Shown here: piece by piece, positions 1 to 62,394 of the stretch
Layout: each line of letters starts with the position of its first letter
Numbering within the stretch: the first letter of the stretch is position 1
Origin: a virus
Virus record (IMG/VR): IMGVR_UViG_3300003375_000002
Direction: 5' to 3' (one strand)
Length of the DNA stretch: 62,394 bases
Program-made: the position numbers and the translations under genes
Notes under the pieces: model-generated
What the model saw: the letters and a program-made list of their open reading frames with translations, nothing else
The model's database searches: none
What the model was told of the DNA's origin: nothing

Positions 1-130
1 AGCCGTCGCCGTAGCCGTAGCCGTAGCCGTCGCCGTTGCCGTAGCCGTAGCCGTTGCCGTAGCCGTAGCCGTTGCCGTAGCCGTCGCCGTTGCCGTAGCC
101 GTAGCCGTAGCCGTTGCCGTAGCCGTCGCC
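1..130. repeat. Tandem 6-nt coding repeat (units gccgta / gccgtc / gccgtt)
   Basis: Direct reading: uninterrupted hexanucleotide units from base 1 to about 130. The same repeat family occurs at 62262..62394. Confidence 0.95.
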
Positions 131-154
131 GACAGGCTTAAAATTTTCGCTCAT
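1..154 (-). CDS. Gly-X dipeptide-repeat protein, N-terminal part (runs off the window start; continues at 62394..62218 if circular)
   Basis: ATG at 154-152 overlaps the TGA of ORF 151..456 (ATGA). My translation is MSENFKPV followed by GDGYGNGYGYGYGNGDGYGN... Too short in-window to appear in the ORF track. Confidence 0.6.
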   Translation of the reverse strand, partial: MSENFKPVGDGYGNGYGYGYGNGDGYGNGYGYGNGYGYGNGDGYGYGYGDG

Positions 155-3376: not shown

Positions 3377-4042
3377 ATGGAAGAGAAAATCGAAATCAAA
3401 AAGCGCCTTACCGGCGAGGTAATTTTTTCCGCCAGCATTGATTGCGAACCCGGCGCGCTGCCATCTGTTAAATTAGGTTTGGCCGTTATGTTGGCTATTA
3501 AAAGCCGCGCGTACCTCAGCCGCGCGGACCTCAGTGGCGCGGACCTCAGTGGCGCGGACCTCAGTGGCGCGGACCTCAGCCGCGCGGACCTCAGTGGCGC
3601 GAACTTCAGTGGCGCGAACCTCAGTGGCGCGAACCTCAGCCGCGCGGACCTCAGTGGCGCGAACTTCAGTGGCGCGAACCTCAGTGGCGCGAACCTCAGT
3701 GGCGCGGACCTCAGTGGCGCGGACCTCAGCCGCGCGTACCTCAACGGCGCGAACCTCAGCGGCGCGGACCTCAGCCGCGCGAACCTCAGCCGCGCGAACC
3801 TCAGCCGCGCGAACCTCAGCAGCGCGAACCTCGTTGATGGTGGTCAAAGATCAGACGGTTATCGTTTTATTGGGTGGGTGAAAGATTCAATCCTTCAAAT
3901 TCTCGCAGGTTGTCGCGATTTTTCAATTATTGAAGCGCGCGCGCATTGGCTTGCCACGCGCGGGGGGACGCCGCTTGGCGATGAAACGATCTGTATTCTA
4001 GATCACATCGAAGCTGTTGCAAAGATTCGCAAACTTATCTGA
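3377..4042 (+). CDS. Pentapeptide-repeat protein with a conserved C-terminal domain
   Basis: About 22 consecutive A(D/N)(L/F)S(G/R) pentapeptides. The C-terminal ~65 aa is shared with ORF 10107..10820. Confidence 0.9.
3505..3832 (+). repeat. Tandem 15-nt coding repeat (pentapeptide array)
   Basis: Near-identical units such as gcgcggacctcagtg / gcgcgaacctcagtg, read directly. Confidence 0.95.
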
Positions 4043-4097: not shown

Positions 4098-5057
4098 ATG
4101 TCGCACGAAGTTGAAACAATGGCCTACGCCAACGCAGTACCATGGCATGGTTTGGGCAACAAGGTCGACCCAAAAACGACCGTCGACGAAATGCTCGTCG
4201 CTGCTGGTCTTGATTGGCAGGTCAAGCTGCGTCCCCTTTTCGCCCAGACGGAAAACGGCGAAATGATCAAGCTGCCATTGCGGCGGGCGCTGGTCCGCAG
4301 TTCCGACAACAAGATCATGTCCGTCACTGGCGACATCTGGAAACCCTTCCAGAACAAGGACGCCATGGAATTCTTCCGCGACTACACTGAGGCCGGTGGC
4401 GCGCGGCTGGAGACAGCCGGCAGCCTTCATGGCGGAAAGTTGATCTGGGCTCTCGCCTCGATCAACGAGGGCTTTACCGTCAAGCGCACCGACCACACAA
4501 AAGGCTACATTCTGCTGACGTCGCCCCATGAAGTCGGCAAGGCCATCACTGTCCGCACCACGACAGTGCGCGTGGTCTGTGCCAACACGATGGCTATGGC
4601 CGTCAATGGATCTCAGGCGTCTTATTCGCAGAACCACCTGACGAAGTTCAACGCTGCCGCTGCCAAGGAGACCATCGTCCTCGCTCGCGCCCAAGTGCAT
4701 CAGGCGCACATCGATGCTCAGGCTCTGACTCAGCTGCAGCTAAGCGAATTCGACACTGTGCGTTTTCTGGCGCGCTTTTTTCAGCCTGCTCCTGAAGGCG
4801 TCAAGGAGGACGCCCATGCCGAAACCCTCCTCAATGTCCACAACGAGCGCTCCAAGGTCTTCGATGCCATTCTGAAGAGCGTCAACGATGCGCCGGGTGC
4901 CGATCCGGGCACAGGCTGGGGTGTGCTGAATGGCGTCACCCATTGGGCCGACCATGTCGCTGGCAACCAGTCTGCCGCCCGGCTCTACAACGCATGGCTG
5001 GGTGAGCGTGCCGCGACAAAGCTCAAGGTTCGAGATGCCTTGCTCCAGATGGTTTAA
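4098..5057 (+). CDS. DUF932-family phage/plasmid protein
   Basis: N-terminal MAYANAVPWHGLGN and later VVCANT motifs. Length and pattern match my memory of DUF932 (TIGR03299-like). Confidence 0.75.
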   Translation: MSHEVETMAYANAVPWHGLGNKVDPKTTVDEMLVAAGLDWQVKLRPLFAQTENGEMIKLPLRRALVRSSDNKIMSVTGDIWKPFQNKDAMEFFRDYTEAGGARLETAGSLHGGKLIWALASINEGFTVKRTDHTKGYILLTSPHEVGKAITVRTTTVRVVCANTMAMAVNGSQASYSQNHLTKFNAAAAKETIVLARAQVHQAHIDAQALTQLQLSEFDTVRFLARFFQPAPEGVKEDAHAETLLNVHNERSKVFDAILKSVNDAPGADPGTGWGVLNGVTHWADHVAGNQSAARLYNAWLGERAATKLKVRDALLQMV

Positions 5058-5073
5058 ACCTAAGCAATTGAAA

Positions 5074-5097
5074 GGCCGGAGAAATCCGGCCTTTTTC
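5074..5097 (+). terminator. Rho-independent terminator
   Basis: ggccgga gaaa tccggcc followed by ttttt. Confidence 0.8.
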
Positions 5098-5116
5098 CTG
5101 TTTTCAAAATCTCGGT

Positions 5117-5218
5117 TCCGTTTCCATTCTATAGGCATTTCTCACCTCTACAGACGACAACACAGAGAAAAAGAATTTTATATAGAGAAGGAAAACTGGG
5201 GTTAAGAATGGAAACGGA
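5117..5218 (+). promoter_or_regulatory. Conserved ~100-nt element, copy A (leader of the helicase gene)
   Basis: Gapless alignment to the reverse complement of 51452..51553 with a 26-nt identical core (5139-5164). Closed by the inverted repeat tccgtttccattct / agaatggaaacgga. Confidence 0.7.
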
Positions 5219-5248
5219 TCCAGCCGATGCAGCCCTGTTGAGGAGCCG

Positions 5249-6946
5249 ATGAACATCAAGATTGAGGGCAATCGCTGCCGAACGACCAGCGCTTACAATG
5301 TGAGGGTGCTGCGCGCATTGCCGAAACTCGAAGGGATGAAGCGCTGGGGCGCGGAGCGGACGCTCTCGTTCGAAAATACGCCTTACAATCTCGAAATTTG
5401 GCGCCAGACGTTCCCTGAGGCGACGATTGAGGGCGGAATGCCGATCGCGCCAACAGGCGTGGTCGCTGACGCCCTTTTCGACCTCAAGGGCGACCGCCCT
5501 AGGTTCGCCTACAGAACCCAGCCTAGAGCCCATCAGAGGGCCGCGCTTGAAAAGCTAGCTGGGAAACCGGCTGTCGGCCTTTTCATGGACATTGGCACCG
5601 GGAAAAGCTGGACAGCGATCGCGATGATCGGGATGCGCTGGTGCGCTGGTCAGTCCGAACACGTCCTGTTGATCGCCAAGAACGGAGTGCACCAGCAATG
5701 GGTGAGTGAACAGATCCCTCAACACATCAGTCCTGTTGTCCCTTGGAAGGCTTGGGTTTGGAAAGAGGGCAAGACTGCCGCAGCGAAATTTGAAACAATG
5801 CTCAAATTCGATGGCCTAAAGATTTTCGCCATCAACATCGACGCCATCAGAACGAAAAAGGCCGAAGCTTCCATCCTACGATTCCTTCAGGCGGCCAATG
5901 GAACTGCCACAATTATCGAGGACGAAAGTCAGGACATCAAAAATCTCTCGTCCGAGCGCACCAAGGCAGCCATAAAATTTCGCAAATTGTGCAAATATGC
6001 AATGATCATGACTGGCACCCCAATAGCCAAGGATCTTGTCGACCTTTTCAGCCAGTTCGCATTCCTCGACGAAAGTATCATTGGTCATCGATATATGACC
6101 ACATTCAAGAATCAATATTGTGTTTTGCAACCGAACCCATTCAGCCCCAAGCCCAAAGTCGTCGGCCACAAGAATGTTGAAGAGTTGTACAAGCGGATTG
6201 ATCCTTACATTTTCCGAATAACGACCGAAGAGGCTCTCGATCTGCCGCCCAAGGTTTTCATTTCCAGGCCATTCGTGTTGAGTGCCGAACAGATCAAAAT
6301 AATGAAGGACCTCAAGGAGCAATTTTTCTCCGATTTCGGAAATGACGACGCTGCATCAGTCAGAAACGCTGCATCCCTTTTGACCAAACTGCAGCAGGTC
6401 AGCTGCGGTTTTCTGCCGATGGATGATGGATCATTCCGCGAGTTGCCAAATCCTCGCCTCGACGAATTGATGACGATACTCGAACAGCGTGAGGGCAAGG
6501 CGATTGTCTGGTGCCGGTTCAATCGTGACATAATTAATGTCAAGAATGCATTGAACAAGATAGAGCCGGAAAGCGCAGTCGATTATTACGGCAAAACGAG
6601 TGCCGCGATGCGCGCCGAAAACAAAGACAATTTCCTCGATTCAAAATCCGGCGTCCGCTATCTCGTCGCTTCGCCAGAGGCTGCCGGCACCGGCCTCAAC
6701 CTGCAAGGCATCTGCCGGACGAATGTCTATTATTCCAACAGCTTCAATTCGCTCGCCCGTTGGCAGAGTGAGGGGCGCACATGGCGCGATGGAACCACTG
6801 GCACCGTCACCTATTTTGATCTGGTGGCGCGGAAAAGTCCAGACGCCAAAATCTTGGCCAATCTGCGAGCCAAGAAAGATATCAGCACTCTGACATTGGA
6901 CGACTATCGCAAGCTCCTGCTCATGGAGGAAGAAGATGAGATTTAG
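5249..6946 (+). CDS. SNF2/DEAD-like superfamily-2 helicase
   Basis: Walker A DIGTGKSWTA, DExx box IIEDESQD, MTGTP, AAGTGLNLQ, and motif VI QSEGRTWRDG. Confidence 0.85.
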   Translation: MNIKIEGNRCRTTSAYNVRVLRALPKLEGMKRWGAERTLSFENTPYNLEIWRQTFPEATIEGGMPIAPTGVVADALFDLKGDRPRFAYRTQPRAHQRAALEKLAGKPAVGLFMDIGTGKSWTAIAMIGMRWCAGQSEHVLLIAKNGVHQQWVSEQIPQHISPVVPWKAWVWKEGKTAAAKFETMLKFDGLKIFAINIDAIRTKKAEASILRFLQAANGTATIIEDESQDIKNLSSERTKAAIKFRKLCKYAMIMTGTPIAKDLVDLFSQFAFLDESIIGHRYMTTFKNQYCVLQPNPFSPKPKVVGHKNVEELYKRIDPYIFRITTEEALDLPPKVFISRPFVLSAEQIKIMKDLKEQFFSDFGNDDAASVRNAASLLTKLQQVSCGFLPMDDGSFRELPNPRLDELMTILEQREGKAIVWCRFNRDIINVKNALNKIEPESAVDYYGKTSAAMRAENKDNFLDSKSGVRYLVASPEAAGTGLNLQGICRTNVYYSNSFNSLARWQSEGRTWRDGTTGTVTYFDLVARKSPDAKILANLRAKKDISTLTLDDYRKLLLMEEEDEI

Positions 6947-9547: not shown

Positions 9548-9895
9548 ATGAAAAAGCCAATTGAAATGGGAAAACAATATCGCACCGAGGACGGGCGCGA
9601 GGTCAGGATTTACGCGGTGGATGGCTACAAACCGTATCCCATTCATGGCGCAATAAAATTTAGCGATGGGTTTGGAACCGCATATTGGACAGAGCATGGC
9701 GAAAATGCCGCTACGCCAAATTACAGCCTCATCGAAATCAAGCCGAAGCGCAAGATCGAGTTCTGGGTGAATGTGTATCCAGATTGGGGGACTGAATGTC
9801 ATTCAACAAAAGCCGATGCCGACGGGTGCGCGGCTAGTAATCGTCTGGCATGCCTTCACTTCATCCGCGAGTACGAGGAAGGAGAAGGGCTATGA
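9548..9895 (+). CDS. Hypothetical protein (115 aa)
   Basis: ORF track. Confidence 0.6.
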   Translation: MKKPIEMGKQYRTEDGREVRIYAVDGYKPYPIHGAIKFSDGFGTAYWTEHGENAATPNYSLIEIKPKRKIEFWVNVYPDWGTECHSTKADADGCAASNRLACLHFIREYEEGEGL

Positions 9896-10110
9896 CCATC
9901 CGCGACCGCATAGCACGGGCGATAGCGCCATACGAGCTAGAGCCGACGCCGGAGACACTGGCGACCGCTGATCGCGTGATTGAGGCGTTGCGCGAGCCGG
10001 GCGAGGCGACGATTGAACGGATGTGGGAGCGTTTCGTGTTCTCACCAAGTCTGACGGCGATACAAACGAGATTGCGCGCCGCCTACGCGGCCATATGGAG
10101 CGAGAAATGA
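9892..10110 (+). CDS. Hypothetical protein (72 aa)
   Basis: ATG at 9892 overlaps the previous stop (ATGA). First gene of the GC-richer block. Confidence 0.6.
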   Translation: MTIRDRIARAIAPYELEPTPETLATADRVIEALREPGEATIERMWERFVFSPSLTAIQTRLRAAYAAIWSEK

Positions 10111-10820
10111 GCGAACAACGCAAATACGAATTTACCGGCGAAACCAAGGAATGGTGCGGCATCACGTTGCGCCAAATCCGCGCCGTTCGCGCGATTGGTT
10201 GGATCGCTGCCGGAACTGTTGGCGGCTGGATCGAAAGTGAAGAAAATCTCGATCAAGTTTCCGGCAATGCGTGGGTCTACGGCAATGCGTGGGTCTACGG
10301 CAATGCGTGCGTCTCCGGCAATGCGCAGGTCTCCGGCAATGCGTGGGTCTCCGGCAATGCGCGGGTCTACGGCAATGCGCAGGTCTCCGGCAATGCGTGG
10401 GTCTTCGGCAATGCGTGGGTCTACGGCAATGCGTGGGTCTACGGCGATGCGCGCGTCTACGGCGATGCGCGCGTCTCCGGCGATGCGTGGGTCTCCGGCA
10501 ATGCGCGGGTCTACGGCAATGCGCAGGTCTCCGGCAATGCGTGGGTCTTCGGCAATGCGTGGGTCTACGGCAATGCGCGGGTTGTGTCAAAAATTATCGT
10601 TGCAACGCGATCTGACGGCTACACGTTTTTACTAACCCCCGACAAAGACAATATTTTGCGGATTATCGCGGGTTGTCGGTATTTCGACATTGAACAAGCG
10701 CGCAAACATTGGCGCGAAACGCGCGGCGGAACGCAATTAGGCGACGAAAGCCTAGCGATTGTCGATCATTTGGAGCGCATGGCTAAGATTTGCGGGCTTA
10801 TAAATGGAGGCGACAAATGA
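10107..10820 (+). CDS. Hexapeptide-repeat (G-N/D-A-x-V-x) protein with the same C-terminal domain as 3377..4042
   Basis: About 18 consecutive hexapeptides (GNAWVY GNAWVY GNACVS GNAQVS ...). C-terminus is RSDGYTFLL...ILRIIAGCRYFDIEQARKHWRETRGGTQLGDESLAIVDHLERMAKICGLI. Confidence 0.85.
   Translation: MSEQRKYEFTGETKEWCGITLRQIRAVRAIGWIAAGTVGGWIESEENLDQVSGNAWVYGNAWVYGNACVSGNAQVSGNAWVSGNARVYGNAQVSGNAWVFGNAWVYGNAWVYGDARVYGDARVSGDAWVSGNARVYGNAQVSGNAWVFGNAWVYGNARVVSKIIVATRSDGYTFLLTPDKDNILRIIAGCRYFDIEQARKHWRETRGGTQLGDESLAIVDHLERMAKICGLINGGDK
10259..10582 (+). repeat. Tandem 18-nt coding repeat (hexapeptide array)
   Basis: Units such as tccggcaatgcgtgggtc / tacggcaatgcgtgggtc, read directly. Confidence 0.95.
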
Positions 10821-11128
10821 GCGAGAGCAAGCACACGCCGGGGCCGTGGGAAGTCCATCACGGAACCGATGTAACTGGCTATCCATGTTATTTCATTCAC
10901 GGCTTTGGTGGTGACGAAAAACATGACACAGCCATGCACGAAGCCAACGCCCGCCTCATCGCCAGCGCGCCCGATCTGCTTGCCGAGGTCGAGCGGTTGC
11001 GCGCAAGCAACGCGGAACTGCTGGCGGCGTTGAAAGAGTGTTTAGCTTTTGCGACGCGAAATGAACTCGGCAATTTTGCAAAACGATGCCGCGCCGCCAT
11101 CGCCCGCGCGGAAGGAGGCGAGGGATGA
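10817..11128 (+). CDS. Hypothetical protein (PGPW ... ANARLIASAPDLL type)
   Basis: ATGA overlap start at 10817. The motif is common in small phage proteins of unknown function (from memory). Confidence 0.6.
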   Translation: MSESKHTPGPWEVHHGTDVTGYPCYFIHGFGGDEKHDTAMHEANARLIASAPDLLAEVERLRASNAELLAALKECLAFATRNELGNFAKRCRAAIARAEGGEG

Positions 11129-11376: not shown

Positions 11377-11591
11377 CCCGCCGCCCCGCCACGCGCCAGC
11401 AAGTCGCGCGCGCGATAGCCGCGATAGAGGCCATTGGCAAGCCGGTTGCCGCCGTGTCTGTCCACAAGGACGGGACAATCACGGTTCGCATAGGCGATCC
11501 GCTGGACAGGTCAACCGAGAGCCGCGACGATGCCGAATTTGAAAATATCATCGCCGGGGCGAAACATGGTCAGAATCGCCATGCGAATTAG
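11373..11591 (+). CDS. Hypothetical protein (72 aa) directly upstream of the integrase
   Basis: ORF track. ATGA overlap start. Confidence 0.55.
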   Translation: MTRRPATRQQVARAIAAIEAIGKPVAAVSVHKDGTITVRIGDPLDRSTESRDDAEFENIIAGAKHGQNRHAN

Positions 11592-12621
11592 GTATGTGCA
11601 AATCATCCGATCCAAGGGGATCGAGTTTGCCTATTACCGGCGCGACGGTCGCCGTGTGCCGATCAAGGCGCGTCCGATTGCGTCGCCAGCCTTTGCCGCC
11701 GAGGTTGAGGCAATCGAGAAAGCATGGAAAACGACGCCGATTCCCGCGCCCAAGAACACGGTTGGCGTTTTGATCGCGGCTTATAAGAAATCCCCGCGCT
11801 GGAATGAAATCAAGCCCGCGACCCGGGCAAGCTATGAGCGCGCCTTTGCTGCGCTTAAGCCATTGGAGAATTTCCCCGCCGCGTCGCTGGATCGCCCCAA
11901 GATTTTCCGCTTTCGGGATTCCGTGGTGTTCCCAAAAAATGGCCGATGGATGGCGAACTATGCCGTGACCGTTCTAGGGCTGCTGCTGGCCTTTGGCGTT
12001 GACGCTGGCATGGTCAAGGCCAACCCCCTTGCCGAGCCCGTCAGGAAGCTACGGAAGGCCAAGGGAAGCGCAAGGGCGAATAGGCCATGGACCGCCGAGG
12101 AACGCGCCGTGGTGCTCGCCGAGGCCCCTAACCATGTCTTACTGCCCTTGGCCCTGCTGATGACAACCGGGATGCGGAAGGCCGATGTGTTCAAGGCCAC
12201 GCTAGGCGCGATCAAGGACGGCATGATTTCCGTCAGGACCAGCAAGACAGATCAACTGGTTTCCCTGCCCGTTCACCCCGTTCTGGCGTCCGCGTTGGCG
12301 ACGCGCCCGACCGCCCGGAGCCTCCAAATCGCCCTGAACAGCGACAAGAAACCTTGGACGCCGGATGGTTTCGATACCGTATGGCATAGGTTCCGAGGCC
12401 GCTTGGAAGCCGAGGGCAAGGTTGCGCCCGGGCTGACCCTGCATGGCCTTCGCCACACTCTCGGGACGCTCTTGAAAGAAGCCGGGCTAGACGACGGCGC
12501 GATTGCGGACGTTCTAGGCCAATCATCAACCAGCATGGCCCGGCATTACAGCCGGGAGGCGCAACTATCGACGGACACGAAAGCCAAGGTCCGGGCGATC
12601 AATTTTGGAGGCGGCAAATGA
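11566..12621 (+). CDS. int: Tyrosine recombinase / phage integrase
   Basis: C-terminal catalytic region LHGLRHTLGTLL...MARHYS (R-H-R-Y type). Start chosen at ATG 11566 (GGGG 7 nt upstream); 11581 is also possible. Confidence 0.85.
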   Translation: MVRIAMRIRYVQIIRSKGIEFAYYRRDGRRVPIKARPIASPAFAAEVEAIEKAWKTTPIPAPKNTVGVLIAAYKKSPRWNEIKPATRASYERAFAALKPLENFPAASLDRPKIFRFRDSVVFPKNGRWMANYAVTVLGLLLAFGVDAGMVKANPLAEPVRKLRKAKGSARANRPWTAEERAVVLAEAPNHVLLPLALLMTTGMRKADVFKATLGAIKDGMISVRTSKTDQLVSLPVHPVLASALATRPTARSLQIALNSDKKPWTPDGFDTVWHRFRGRLEAEGKVAPGLTLHGLRHTLGTLLKEAGLDDGAIADVLGQSSTSMARHYSREAQLSTDTKAKVRAINFGGGK

Positions 12622-12884: not shown

Positions 12885-13073
12885 AAGTGGCAAACCAAAG
12901 TGGCAAACCGTAGAAGCGAAATTTAAGTTATTGGTGCCCGGGGGCGGAATCGAACCACCGACACTGCGATTTTCAGTCGCACCCTACGCGCGCCGCATCA
13001 ATTACTTAGCCGAAAACCAGAATGGCAAACGGCCCAAAACGGCCAATAGGTTGCGCGAGATTTGGCAAACCGG
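12885..13073. other. attP-like module 1: tRNA-Phe 3' fragment flanked by TGGCAAAC repeats
   Basis: AGTGGCAAACC twice in tandem (12886-12909), the tRNA fragment at 12932-12981, then atGGCAAACgg (13021-13032) and tTGGCAAACc (13061-13072), all in the same orientation. Lies next to int. Confidence 0.6.
12932..12981 (-). other. 3' portion of a tRNA-Phe(GAA) (anticodon arm to CCA); not a complete tRNA
   Basis: The reverse complement reads TGCGA CTGAAAA TCGCA GTGTC GGTGG TTCGATT CCGCC CCCGGGC ACCA. No D-arm or 5' acceptor strand upstream. Confidence 0.8.
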
Positions 13074-54252: not shown

Positions 54253-57200
54253 TCAATCCTCCATATCGCCGATGTAACGCACTGCGGAGATTCGCAGCAT
54301 GCGGAAGCCCTTGGGCACAGTGCCCTTGAAAGCGTAGAGTGCCTTGCCCGGTCGGCCGCGCTCGACGATTTGTCGACCTAGCTTCTCGAACATGTAGCGA
54401 TCAACCTTCCCGAAAATTCTGTCTGTGTCGTCTGCTATTGTCAGATTTAGGCTCTGTGTTGGGCCAGTGAGAACCTTACCGTTGCGCTTGGCAATGTTGA
54501 CCTGCTCATTTTCGTCGCGCGGCTTGATCTGAGCGACAGTCGCGATCACCAATGCATCATAATCCTGATCCTTGCACTGGAGCTTGATCACATTGGTCGG
54601 AACGGTGAAAATGCTGCGCGCCTTCGGATCAGGCATCAGCCGGTCAACTGCATCCTGGATTGGCCAAAGACTATCAATTTCCGTCTGTGCATTTTTCATC
54701 ATCTTTTCCGCACGCGGCGGCAGCGGTTCGCCCCGCGCTCGCGAAGACATGATTGCGCTGACCATCTTGGGGCCGATGCCCTTCACATTCTGGATAGGAC
54801 CGATCAGCACTTTCTTCCCATTCCTGAAACCGGCTGTCCATTTGTCAGTCGACAATTCGGCATCAATCGGAACATAATCGAAACCCTCTGCCTTCATCTC
54901 GCGCAGAATTCGGATCTGCTTCTCCGGATCGTTCTCGTGAGTCAATGTGGCTGCAGCGAATTCGAATGGGTGATGCGCCTTCATGTATGCGCACCAATAG
55001 CTGATAATTCCATAAGCGACAGAATGACTGCGGTTGAACGCCCACGAGCCATAGGCGCAATTATGAACAACTATTCCATTCGCAAGAAAATTGTGATGTG
55101 GTGCCGGCATGTGAATGTCATATACATCTTCAAATCCATGCGGAACGATTGAAACTATTTTATCGCTAAAAATAGCTCTGCCTTTTTTCCAAGGATTTGG
55201 ATTGCTTTCAAGGGCTGCATGGAGTTTCTTGTGGCACTTTCTGCAAACTGCCATCAAATTGTCTATTCTATCATTGCTGTGGTCCATATCAATGTGGTGA
55301 GTCTCCTCATAAGGTGAAATGTGGCAATGCTGACAATTCTTGTAATTGGCTTTTAAATATCTTTTTCCCTCTGCGAGTGTCGGTATACCTTGCTTAATCT
55401 TATACCACCAATTGTGGCCTCCAGAGCCACTCTTTTTTGGAGATTTCCTTTTTGTCGGAATAGTGCCTGCATCGCTGACGACAGAATCTCCAACCTTAAG
55501 ATCTTGCAACGCAGAATAGGAAAGATCTGGCATCAAGAATTTGTGCTCTTTAGTGGCCTTGATTCTGTTTCCACTTTCTGTTGTAAGAAGATATGTCATC
55601 TTCTTGCCAGAATATGTCACCCCGAAATTTTCAAATGGTTTAAGAGACTCTCCATCGAACATCAATATTTTCTGCCTCTTTCTTTTGGCAGAATTTTTTT
55701 CTGTTGGACCGAGTCCTCCTCGATCGTAGAGTTGCTTAATGGTAAATTTTCTGTATCTTCCTTTTGATGGGAATGGATTTTCAATCTCCGTATCTCCAGA
55801 AAGACACAAATCGTCCCACACCTTTCCGCAAACTTCCGCTGGAACGCCCCGCTCAATCGCGCCTTTCTTGAATCTGTCTCCGTATTGGTCGAAATATTCC
55901 TTGCCTAAGCTCTTGCTCATCGCCTTGCGCAATGCGGTCACATCGTCCCAGCTGAGTCCGCCAATCTCGCGACTGACCTGCATTACCTGCTCTTGATAAG
56001 CGACAATTCCGAGTGTATTCTTCAAATAAGGCTCAAACAGCGGATGCGGATAAGTCAGCGGAGATTGACCGTTCTTGCGCTTGACCCATTCGTTGGTGCC
56101 GCCGCTGGCCATCGGCCCTGGACGGGCGAGGGCTGTGATGGCGATGATGTCTTCGAGGCTGCGGACCTTGACCTGATTGGTGATGGATTGAAGGGCTGCA
56201 CCCATGAACTGAAATATTCCGGAGAACTGACCCTTGTTCAAAACGTCGAAGGCTGCCTTGTCGTCCAGCGGAACACTCTCCAAATGATGCATCGGCAGAC
56301 CGGCCATCGTCAATGCATCCTCGAACACACTCAACTGCGTCAGCCCGAGCGCGTCAATTTTCAAAAGGTTGAGCTCTTCGGCATCCTTTTTGTCGCACAT
56401 GGTGGCGCCAGTGCGCGCGTCCACAGCCACATAATCCGTCACTGGGGTCTCAGTGATCACGATGCCGGCTGCATGCTGGCCGAAGTGACGCGGATGGCCC
56501 TCCATCCGCGCTGCGATCATGATCTCCGGATTTTTCTTGAGCAACTCTTGGCCGGATGGCGTTGTGTTCAGCGTGTCCTCAAGCGTCGACAGCGCGCGTG
56601 AGTCGCCGCCCGAGCGAACAATCAGCGAGTCGACGACCTTGTCGCACAGCCACTTCGGAACACCGAGTGCGGTTCCTGCCTCTTCAATGGCTGAACGCGG
56701 ACGGAACAGTGCAACTGTCCCGAGGCGCGCAATGTGATCGCGGCCATATTTATGCTCCATATATTCGAACACGAGATGGCGCTTCTGATCCGAGAAATCG
56801 ACGTCAATGTCTGGCAGATCGGAGCGAGTGATGTCAATGAACCGCTCGAAAAGCAGGTCATACTTCAGCGGATCGATGGTCGTGATGTCGAGCAGATAGC
56901 AAACAAGACTGCCGCAGCTGGAGCCGCGCGCCGGTCCGCAGATCATGCGCTGACGCGCCCAAGTCATCATGTCTGCGACGATGAAAAAATAATCCTCGAA
57001 CTTTTTCTCAGCTATGAGGTCCAACTCGCGCTTGAGTCGGTCGGCATAAACGGGGTCCGTCAGGTCGGTGCCAGTGCGAATGGCGCCATTCCGGCACATC
57101 TTCTCCAGCGTCAGGGGCTTTTCCGGGCTGAGGAGCGTCGCAGTCTTTAGTCTTGCGTTGCAAAGGGTCGCTACATGGTCAGCCGTGGTCCAGGATGCCG

Positions 57201-57843
57201 CAAGAATGTCCGGCGTGACGATTCCCCCACAGGCGATTTTCCAGGCCTCCTGCCCCATCAGGGATTGATCGTAGGTTTGGACCGAAGCGCCACGTCCGCA
57301 GAGCACCTCGTAGAAACCTTCATCCTCCAGCCGTAGGAACTTGTTGTCGCTGACAGCGACCAGCCGGTGGCCGCGCTTCAAGGCTTGATTGATGTAGCCT
57401 TTTGAACAGGCTGGCCCCAGCCCGACATAAATGTCATCCTGAACATCAAAATTTTCCAACAGCGACCGATGGCCGACGATCTTGATGACGCCTTCAGCGA
57501 TGACCGCCTGTTCATAGGTCAACAGCGGCTCATAACGGAATTGAGAAGTCGCGAGCTCGACGAGCTGATTGATAAATTTAACATCATCAATCGCCAGAAA
57601 TGTCCAATAGTCAATTGTCGGCTTCTTGGCGTGAATTGATTCAGTCACTGCCAGTTCAACGCCATAGAGCGGCTTGAGCCCGGCCTTTTTCGACAGCTTG
57701 GCCCATCGCGTCCAGCCGAATGTGCTGGCGCGGTCAGTTATCGGTGCATAGGTCGCGCCATTTTCGATCAGGCGCTCCATCGTCTCATCGATCATTCCTG
57801 CTGCCGCGCGGAAGCTGTAGCCGGTGCGTACGCGGAGGGTCAT
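54253..57843 (-). CDS. dnaE: DNA polymerase III alpha subunit (DnaE-type) interrupted by an intein
   Basis: N-terminal PHP-like region. Core motifs GPARGSSCGSLVCYLL, DIDVDF, KIDALGL, AFNRSHSVAY. Intein at residues 680-928. Confidence 0.9.
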   Translation of the reverse strand: MTLRVRTGYSFRAAAGMIDETMERLIENGATYAPITDRASTFGWTRWAKLSKKAGLKPLYGVELAVTESIHAKKPTIDYWTFLAIDDVKFINQLVELATSQFRYEPLLTYEQAVIAEGVIKIVGHRSLLENFDVQDDIYVGLGPACSKGYINQALKRGHRLVAVSDNKFLRLEDEGFYEVLCGRGASVQTYDQSLMGQEAWKIACGGIVTPDILAASWTTADHVATLCNARLKTATLLSPEKPLTLEKMCRNGAIRTGTDLTDPVYADRLKRELDLIAEKKFEDYFFIVADMMTWARQRMICGPARGSSCGSLVCYLLDITTIDPLKYDLLFERFIDITRSDLPDIDVDFSDQKRHLVFEYMEHKYGRDHIARLGTVALFRPRSAIEEAGTALGVPKWLCDKVVDSLIVRSGGDSRALSTLEDTLNTTPSGQELLKKNPEIMIAARMEGHPRHFGQHAAGIVITETPVTDYVAVDARTGATMCDKKDAEELNLLKIDALGLTQLSVFEDALTMAGLPMHHLESVPLDDKAAFDVLNKGQFSGIFQFMGAALQSITNQVKVRSLEDIIAITALARPGPMASGGTNEWVKRKNGQSPLTYPHPLFEPYLKNTLGIVAYQEQVMQVSREIGGLSWDDVTALRKAMSKSLGKEYFDQYGDRFKKGAIERGVPAEVCGKVWDDLCLSGDTEIENPFPSKGRYRKFTIKQLYDRGGLGPTEKNSAKRKRQKILMFDGESLKPFENFGVTYSGKKMTYLLTTESGNRIKATKEHKFLMPDLSYSALQDLKVGDSVVSDAGTIPTKRKSPKKSGSGGHNWWYKIKQGIPTLAEGKRYLKANYKNCQHCHISPYEETHHIDMDHSNDRIDNLMAVCRKCHKKLHAALESNPNPWKKGRAIFSDKIVSIVPHGFEDVYDIHMPAPHHNFLANGIVVHNCAYGSWAFNRSHSVAYGIISYWCAYMKAHHPFEFAAATLTHENDPEKQIRILREMKAEGFDYVPIDAELSTDKWTAGFRNGKKVLIGPIQNVKGIGPKMVSAIMSSRARGEPLPPRAEKMMKNAQTEIDSLWPIQDAVDRLMPDPKARSIFTVPTNVIKLQCKDQDYDALVIATVAQIKPRDENEQVNIAKRNGKVLTGPTQSLNLTIADDTDRIFGKVDRYMFEKLGRQIVERGRPGKALYAFKGTVPKGFRMLRISAVRYIGDMED
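55060..55806 (-). mobile_element. Class-1 intein (249 aa) with an HNH endonuclease insert
   Basis: Starts CLSGDTEI. Block B is ATKEH. HNH motif is CQHCH...HHIDMDHSNDRIDNLMAVCRKCHKKLH. Ends GIVVHN followed by +1 Cys (CAYGSWAFNRSH). The segment is markedly AT-rich. Confidence 0.9.
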
Positions 57844-62217: not shown

Positions 62218-62394
62218 TCAAAAAATTCTTCGCATTCTGTTTGACGAAATTGTTCCTTGACCGTAGCCGTAGCCGTAGCCGTAGCCGTAGCCGTAGCCGT
62301 AGCCGTAGCCGTTGCCGTCGCCGTAGCCGTCGCCGTAGCCGTTGCCGTTGCCGTCGCCGTAGCCGTCGCCGTAGCCGTAGCCGTAGCCGTCGCC
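62218..62394 (-). CDS. Gly-X dipeptide-repeat protein, C-terminal part (enters from the window end)
   Basis: My translation: GDGYGYGYGDGYGDGNGNGYGDGYGDGNGYGYGYGYGYGYGYGYGQGTISSNRMRRIF then TGA at 62220-62218. Confidence 0.6.
   Translation of the reverse strand, partial: GDGYGYGYGDGYGDGNGNGYGDGYGDGNGYGYGYGYGYGYGYGYGQGTISSNRMRRIF
62262..62394. repeat. Tandem 6-nt coding repeat, same family as 1..130
   Basis: Direct reading. The last 34 nt equal the first 34 nt of the window. Confidence 0.95.

Follow-up and report, generated by a model that had tools for sequence, protein, structure and literature searches.

A YdcK-type repeat protein of a temperate phage with a hexapeptide array and a C-terminal domain shared with a pentapeptide-repeat protein

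The IMG/VR virus record IMGVR_UViG_3300003375_000002, a stretch of 62,394 nucleotides (nt) referred to below in its whole length as the window, is the genome of a temperate phage. It contains a gene for a protein of 237 amino acids (aa), here called the target, the middle of which is built from hexapeptide repeats (the positions of all features are collected in Table 1). The protein is probably a three-part early accessory protein of the YdcK type, with a rod of variable length between two conserved ends. Its start codon is shared with the TGA stop of the preceding small open reading frame (ORF) in the sequence ATGA at 10107..10110, and a Shine-Dalgarno-like motif stands just before it. At its other end the gene is joined likewise to the following ORF, whose ATG at 10817 shares letters with the target stop codon. 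Pfam scans assigned no family to the upstream ORF and no significant family to the downstream one. Three further ORFs cross the repeat array in other frames (10162..10590 on the minus strand, 10195..10635 and 10271..10615 on the plus strand) and lie almost wholly inside the repeat; among the ORFs covering the array, database relatives were found for the target frame only. A preliminary description of the window had proposed the same ORF, frame, start and Shine-Dalgarno coupling, had quoted the N-terminal sequence correctly and had regarded the other ORFs as repeat artefacts, and all of this was borne out.

Alignments of 16 and of 95 homologues divide the protein into three: a conserved N-terminal domain, an array of hexads that differs in length between homologues, and a C-terminal module. 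The columns of the N-terminal domain are nearly invariant in the 95-sequence alignment, and AlphaFold2 models this part with a beta-hairpin at a predicted local distance difference test score (pLDDT) of about 90. The isoelectric point (pI) of the whole protein is 7.6. For the array, Tandem Repeats Finder (TRF) reported 18-nt units at 10262..10582, with 17.8 copies, 89% matches, no insertions or deletions and a score of 460. Read in frame, the array consists of exactly 18 uninterrupted and near-perfect hexads, where about 18 had been counted before, and the last one is GNARVV. Within units 1 to 17, the codons for Gly, Ala and Val are identical and differences are confined to hexad positions 2, 4 and 6; nearly all of them change the residue, the sole silent one being CGG/CGC for Arg at position 4. 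Aromatic residues are frequent, with 9 Trp, 8 Tyr and 2 Phe in 108 residues.

Profile searches assigned the target to a known repeat family. The Pfam model PF18836 (YdcK beta-solenoid repeat) matched in nine stretches with 90 bits against a gathering cut-off of 30 (E=2e-26). PHROG 5070 was matched over profile positions 2-170 of 182 (E=2e-59) and PHROG 7964 over positions 22-187 of 269 (E=6e-59); both carry the database label 'function unknown'. The crystal structures of YdcK (2F9C/2PIG) were found with E=3e-18 in a single-sequence search and with E=4.5e-33 when a profile of 95 homologues was searched against the Protein Data Bank (PDB), and the other beta-helix matches of this profile in the PDB were left-handed beta-helix enzymes only, all of them weak. 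The equivalog model for YdcK itself (NCBIfam NF040481) scored 84.6 bits against a cut-off of 350 (E=6e-24) and aligned target aa 3-94 only, to model positions 9-99 of 326. As judged from its sequence, the target is thus a member of the YdcK-type repeat family and neither a YdcK orthologue nor a hexapeptide transferase. It shares its N-terminal domain and its kind of hexad repeat with YdcK of Salmonella and Escherichia coli, whereas YdcK is a chromosomal protein of 326 aa with irregular hexads and lacks the C-terminal domain of the target.

The family is very large. At least 7,938 homologous proteins were found at E<=1e-5, 84 GenBank phage records contain a homologue, and 410 IMG/VR stretches encode a relative; the best homologue match has 58-66% identity. 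Named members occur in the Streptococcus phages Sfi19 (orf229) and Sfi18 (gp229), the Liberibacter phages SC1 and SC2, Acidovorax phage AP1, Ruminococcus phage phiRM10 and Mycobacterium phage Boilgate, and the family extends over phages of Firmicutes, Proteobacteria, Bacteroidetes and Actinobacteria. Plasmid matches exist as well but are uninformative. The phage members in PHROG 5070/7964, such as those of Sfi19/Sfi18, AP1 and SC1/SC2, have the three-part architecture of the target and are located in early regions, and the homologues of Sfi19, AP1 and SC1/SC2 are 41-48% identical to it. The repeat is retained as coding sequence across the homologues, so that one condition named in the preliminary description as refuting it turned out in its favour. 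The preliminary description had considered long coding repeats unusual for a 62-kb phage, and this view did not hold: as the target belongs to such a large catalogued family, coding tandem repeats of this kind must be common in phages. The gene in the window is itself an ordinary member of a large, catalogued and uncharacterised phage family.

When 25 kb of the window was compared with GenBank phages by megablast, the sole match was the repeat array of phage AP1. The array DNA of AP1 is 89% identical to that of the window and the proteins are 46% identical; both arrays use the same codons, GGC-AAT/GAT-GCG-xxx-GTC-TAC.

Concerning the fold, the hexads would form a left-handed beta-helix. The homology to YdcK supplies a solved example, since the structures 2F9C/2PIG belong to a protein classed as a left-handed beta-helix. 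If the hexad is recast as V-[YSF]-G-[ND]-A-x, it has the inward aliphatic and the small-residue positions of the canonical hexapeptide motif, but it departs from the second position of that motif, where the target has Tyr, Ser or Phe (motif: PMC3046976). Left-handed beta-helices contain three hexads per turn (PMC3046976), and 18 hexads would therefore make about six turns, in agreement with the number suggested in the preliminary description. In such a helix, Val and Ala would face inward, and the variable positions with Trp, Arg or Gln and with Tyr, Ser or Phe would line the surface of the rod, so that the aromatic residues of the array would be exposed.

The number of hexads differs widely across the family, from about 2 to 35, and comparison among relatives, a check that had been proposed for this array, indicated that it changes in frame and by whole hexads. 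Among 78 pairs of fetched proteins with at least 90% identical ends and unequal lengths, the length difference was a multiple of 6 aa in 68. In isolate genomes, an exact tandem duplication of 72 nt separates the Liberibacter phages SC2 and P-9PA-3. L010, the closest relative found in IMG/VR and one whose integrase is 80% identical, has 11 hexads, compared with 18 in the window. The sequence of the array also varies far more than the flanking domains in relatives. In the near-identical phages Sfi18, Sfi19 and CHPC919, 10-14 mismatches were counted in 321 nt of the array against 0-2 in 369 nt of the flanks (Fisher p=4e-5 and 0.016), and the differing codons comprised 7-11 nonsynonymous and 0-1 synonymous changes. 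The rod would become longer or shorter through slippage of 18-nt units during replication or through unequal recombination among them, and since the unit is a multiple of three, a change in length never breaks the frame. The simplest reading is that one of these processes acts on the array together with variation that is kept at surface positions.

A related situation is known from NeuO of prophage CUS-3, a left-handed beta-helix O-acetyltransferase with a coding tandem repeat that varies by strand slippage (PMC3046976). NeuO resembles the target as a prophage-encoded left-handed beta-helix protein with a length-variable coding repeat. However, NeuO is a true enzyme, and its 7-nt units lie outside the beta-helix and switch the frame on and off, whereas in the target the 18-nt units would themselves form the helix, and they leave the frame unaltered.

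The second conserved part of the protein is a C-terminal domain of 65 aa, in which two helices come after four strands; it has a conserved G-C turn as well as a T-R-G motif. It was modelled by AlphaFold2 with a pLDDT of 92 and a predicted template modelling (TM) score of 0.81 when taken alone, and with a pLDDT of 92-98 within the whole protein. By tblastn, the window contains two copies only, one in the target and one in a partner gene that encodes a pentapeptide-repeat protein (PF00805: 145 bits against a cut-off of 20.2, E=3e-43). Over 67 aa the two copies share 58% identity (E=4e-22), which substantiates the earlier suggestion of a second rod type with the same C-terminal domain. The 22 pentads of the partner are near-perfect and follow A-[DN]-L-S-[GR]. 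The pentapeptide rod, with its five-residue repeat, has no sequence relation to the hexad array and bears the same C-terminal domain here and in other phages. Pentapeptide-repeat rods are right-handed, four-sided helices. The repeat segment of the partner comprises about 110 aa, almost equal to the 108 aa of the hexad array. The first 44 aa of the partner reappear in pentapeptide proteins of other phages, P0359 among them.

Pfam scans assigned no family to the C-terminal domain, neither sequence profiles nor Foldseek detected a relative in the PDB, and no publication on the domain was found. Among the predicted viral structures of the database BFVD, the domain matched C-termini of phage repeat proteins, with E values down to 5e-8 and TM scores of about 0.8. 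These included phage pentapeptide-repeat proteins (E=6e-7, TM 0.79), phage beta-solenoid proteins under such names as hexapeptide, ydcK or 'beta solenoid repeat' protein, and a protein of 97 aa (E=5e-8). In an exhaustive profile search, 2,000 clusters or more reached E<=1e-3 and 494 of them E<=1e-10, and the matches sit almost always at the C-terminus of the protein. An automatic classification of the N-terminal parts of the best 150 profile matches gave 77 with a hexapeptide rod, 11 with a pentapeptide rod (plus three with degenerate pentapeptide repeats that were counted under 'other'), 27 of at most 100 aa (stand-alone or fragment) and 33 others, including helix-turn-helix and Bro-N-like N-termini. 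That this domain is attached to a hexapeptide or a pentapeptide rod, or stands by itself, is a general pattern in phages.

The domain occurs in two flavours. Type 1 (RSDGYxF...AGCRYF..EAR.HW..TRGGT) is present in the target and in all pentapeptide rods seen, whereas Sfi19 and AP1 have type 2 (GFG..RNTTFF...CGCFxGT..EF...THG). Type-1 domains are 53-60% identical to each other irrespective of the rod (mean identities 0.60, 0.57 and 0.53). Rod-specific lineages of the domain were considered as well and appear weakly: in 56 of 62 cases the nearest neighbour agreed in rod type. Some family members (P0050, P0055, P0113, P0016, P0031 and P0068) end in other modules; the alternatives include DUF7666/DUF5758 and an 'IGCExHT..W' type. 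As the terminal modules differ among family members, the C-terminal position is a site at which modules are swapped.

The target is one of a series of small genes that point in one direction and have no Pfam family, and the integrase terminates this series. One relative has ERF, SSB and NinB as neighbours, and another adjoins a PD-(D/E)XK nuclease, GapR and a family A polymerase. The homologue of Liberibacter phage SC2 is located between a repressor and an antirepressor plus primase, and that of Sfi19 between the lysis and replication modules, upstream of the latter. The location of the target and the neighbours of its relatives argue for an early accessory gene and against a part of the virion.

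Table 1. Positions of the repeat protein gene, its parts and other features in the window (strand + or -)
Feature	Position	Strand	Remarks	Evidence
YdcK-type beta-solenoid repeat protein gene (target)	10107..10820	+	237 aa; stop included	ORF, PF18836, PHROG 5070/7964, homologues
Shine-Dalgarno-like motif GGAG	10097..10100	+	6 nt 5' of the target ATG	sequence inspection
N-terminal domain, aa 1-52	10107..10262	+	family-conserved; common to chromosomal YdcK	
18 hexads G-[ND]-A-x-V-x	10263..10586	+	18-nt units	TRF, unit-by-unit listing
C-terminal domain, aa 161-237	10587..10817	+	conserved core about aa 168-232	AlphaFold2, BFVD, profile search
Upstream small ORF	9850..10110	+	86 aa; its stop overlaps the target start	
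Downstream small ORF	10817..11128	+	103 aa; its start overlaps the target stop	
Pentapeptide-repeat partner gene	3377..4042	+	221 aa; same C-terminal domain	PF00805
15-nt coding array of the partner	3503..3832	+	22 pentapeptides	TRF, translation
C-terminal domain copy of the partner	3848..4039	+		tblastn of the domain against the window
Helicase	5249..6946	+		
Tyrosine integrase	11530..12621	+	end of the co-directional cluster of the target	PHROG 1, E=5e-34
3' half of a transfer RNA (tRNA)	12935..12985	-	just downstream of the integrase	
Virion protein genes	about 18-50 kb	-		
Protein of 1,246 aa	42548..46288	-		
DNA polymerase	54253..57843	-		
6-nt arrays (AGCCGT)n	1..131 and 62261..62394			TRF

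Some further features of the genome were noted. ARAGORN found no complete tRNA for the 3' half downstream of the integrase, and the fragment is the probable core of the attP site. It has an anticodon loop GAA and is hence tRNA-Phe-like, and about 48 nt of it are identical in the relative L010. The exact 51-nt fragment matched no genome; a 30-nt part has exact matches in many genomes of Alphaproteobacteria, which hints at this group as hosts. The other two tandem arrays listed in the preliminary description, one of 15-nt units and one of 6-nt units at the window ends, are likewise real. The 6-nt arrays encode, on the minus strand, a small protein of Gly-Tyr, Gly-Asn and Gly-Asp dipeptide repeats (MSENFKPVGDGYGNGYGYG...GQGTISSNRMRRIF) that is cut by the window ends. 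Direct joining of the ends would be out of frame, and the contig was therefore probably broken or trimmed inside the 6-nt repeat. About the last 150 aa of the 1,246-aa protein have matches in many PHROGs, the labels of which are mixed and include minor head protein, endolysin and DarB-like antirestriction.

Names given to homologues, such as 'carbonic anhydrase/acetyltransferase-like (isoleucine patch)', 'putative acyltransferase' and 'UDP-3-O-glucosamine N-acyltransferase', together with weak NCBIfam and PDB matches to such enzymes, would suggest an acyl- or acetyltransferase of the LpxA-like hexapeptide superfamily. This identity is very improbable, as PF00132 (Hexapep) gave no match at E<=1, all transferase models scored 12-20 bits against cut-offs of 130-666, the hexads run on without loop insertions, and no relatives of the C-terminal domain were found among known enzymes by Pfam, PDB sequence profiles or Foldseek. 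Bactofilins, which are right-handed and form filaments, have turns of about 18 residues, and a bactofilin-like protein that polymerises end to end was considered because of a PF04519 match (E=7.5e-5) and because the Prokaryotic Genome Annotation Pipeline names several homologues 'polymer-forming cytoskeletal protein'. The match of 23.3 bits stays below the gathering cut-off of 27.9, however, no bactofilin structure was among the PDB matches, in contrast to YdcK with E=4.5e-33, and globular domains at both ends of the rod would block stacking, all of which makes a bactofilin improbable. A beta-helical virion component, such as a spike, a tail fibre or part of the baseplate, is hardly to be expected either. 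Tail spikes often contain beta-helices and there are weak PHROG matches to tail, baseplate and structural proteins (E 1.4e-5 to 0.018), but these are restricted to the repeat, the target lies in the helicase-integrase cluster with the virion genes on the opposite strand, and relatives adjoin ERF/SSB/NinB, PolA or repressor and antirepressor genes or, in Sfi19, precede the replication module. The early position and the presence of the same C-terminal domain on a pentapeptide-repeat rod, the fold of known gyrase-protecting DNA mimics, raise the thought of a Qnr- or MfpA-like mimic that blocks a DNA-binding enzyme of the host, for instance gyrase or a nuclease of restriction or defence. The known mimics of DNA are strongly acidic proteins, whereas in the target the Trp/Tyr-rich hexads add up to a net charge of about +2 (pI 8.9) and the partner array reaches only about -2; array length is moreover freely variable between 2 and 35 hexads, and a mimic appears a rather poor prospect. 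A preprint on phages of ammonia oxidisers merely mentions a Qnr-type protein.

The structural and evolutionary account, in which the target is a YdcK-type three-part early accessory protein of a temperate phage with a variable rod, is considered probable, and several observations weigh against it. AlphaFold2, a structure prediction having been suggested at the outset, produced strands with a period of six in the array, but at low confidence (pLDDT about 45), and in a Foldseek search of the whole model against the PDB the best match was YdcK with a weak E=0.014. The helix, and above all its handedness, therefore rests on sequence homology: the left-handed beta-helix of the preliminary description is supported by the relationship to YdcK and PF18836, while the prediction neither confirms nor refutes it. 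Hexad counts are evenly spread over the remainders modulo 3 and thus reveal no preference for whole turns, which fits a loose spacer and argues against a function as a precise ruler. The concentration of differences in the array could reflect shuffling of units by gene conversion and not selection. The evidence on copy number derives in large part from metagenome assemblies, in which repeats can collapse. In the literature on phage YdcK-type proteins, PF18836, Sfi19 orf229 and phage pentapeptide-repeat proteins, no functional study was found, and neither experiments nor annotated neighbours that point to a function were found. A search of PADLOC-DB, a library of defence and not of counter-defence, gave no match for the target, the partner or three neighbours. 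Finally, the gene might be real but its 18-hexad count a product of assembly. The longest exact repeat in the array measures 95 nt at an offset of 144 nt and exceeds usual assembly k-mers, so a short-read assembly could mis-size the array by 8 hexads; metagenome relatives also include versions with 2 hexads of genes that have about 20 elsewhere. Against this, unit differences allow 150-nt reads to span the longest repeat, and the isolates Sfi18, Sfi19 and CHPC919 also have 18 hexads, which renders an artefactual count unlikely.

Within the account of a three-part accessory protein with a variable rod, a role as a non-enzymatic binding adaptor is put forward tentatively. The target gene would be expressed with the early genes. 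The C-terminal domain would act as the conserved working head and would probably bind a partner from the host or the phage, and the rod would serve as a scaffold or spacer that tolerates changes in length and offers an evolvable aromatic surface. From the position of the gene and the behaviour of the domain, a part in host takeover or counter-defence is the best guess. A still more far-reaching idea, which has to be regarded as doubtful, is that the C-terminal domain is a widespread phage working head placed on interchangeable rods (hexapeptide, pentapeptide or none) and that the target and its partner are two versions of one host-directed binding device. If so, the length and surface of the rod could change quickly by in-frame slippage, with the array as the fast-evolving part, and the two proteins could act, for example, as an inhibitor or decoy in the arms race between phage and host.

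The annotation of homologues is affected by the repeats. The AP1 gene (OM049504.1, 5983..6738) is annotated on the opposite strand, and the annotated ORF is therefore a repeat artefact. In Sfi19 (4995..5684), an 'orf129' is annotated in another frame within orf229 and is probably a repeat artefact as well. Unfounded names of GenBank homologues include glycerol kinase, major facilitator superfamily (MFS) transporter and acyl-carrier-protein.

Modestly new are the uncurated C-terminal domain shared by two unrelated rods and the clear evidence for length variation in frame. The family is widely mis-annotated, with members named as transferases, glycerol kinase or cytoskeletal protein, and is one of the commoner unknowns in phage genomes. 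A domain map with an N-terminal domain, a variable hexad rod and a swappable C-terminal module aids its annotation, and the small conserved domain on two unrelated rod types represents a concrete target for functional work. The in-frame variation in length offers a clean case, found in nature, of a structural protein that changes through its repeats.

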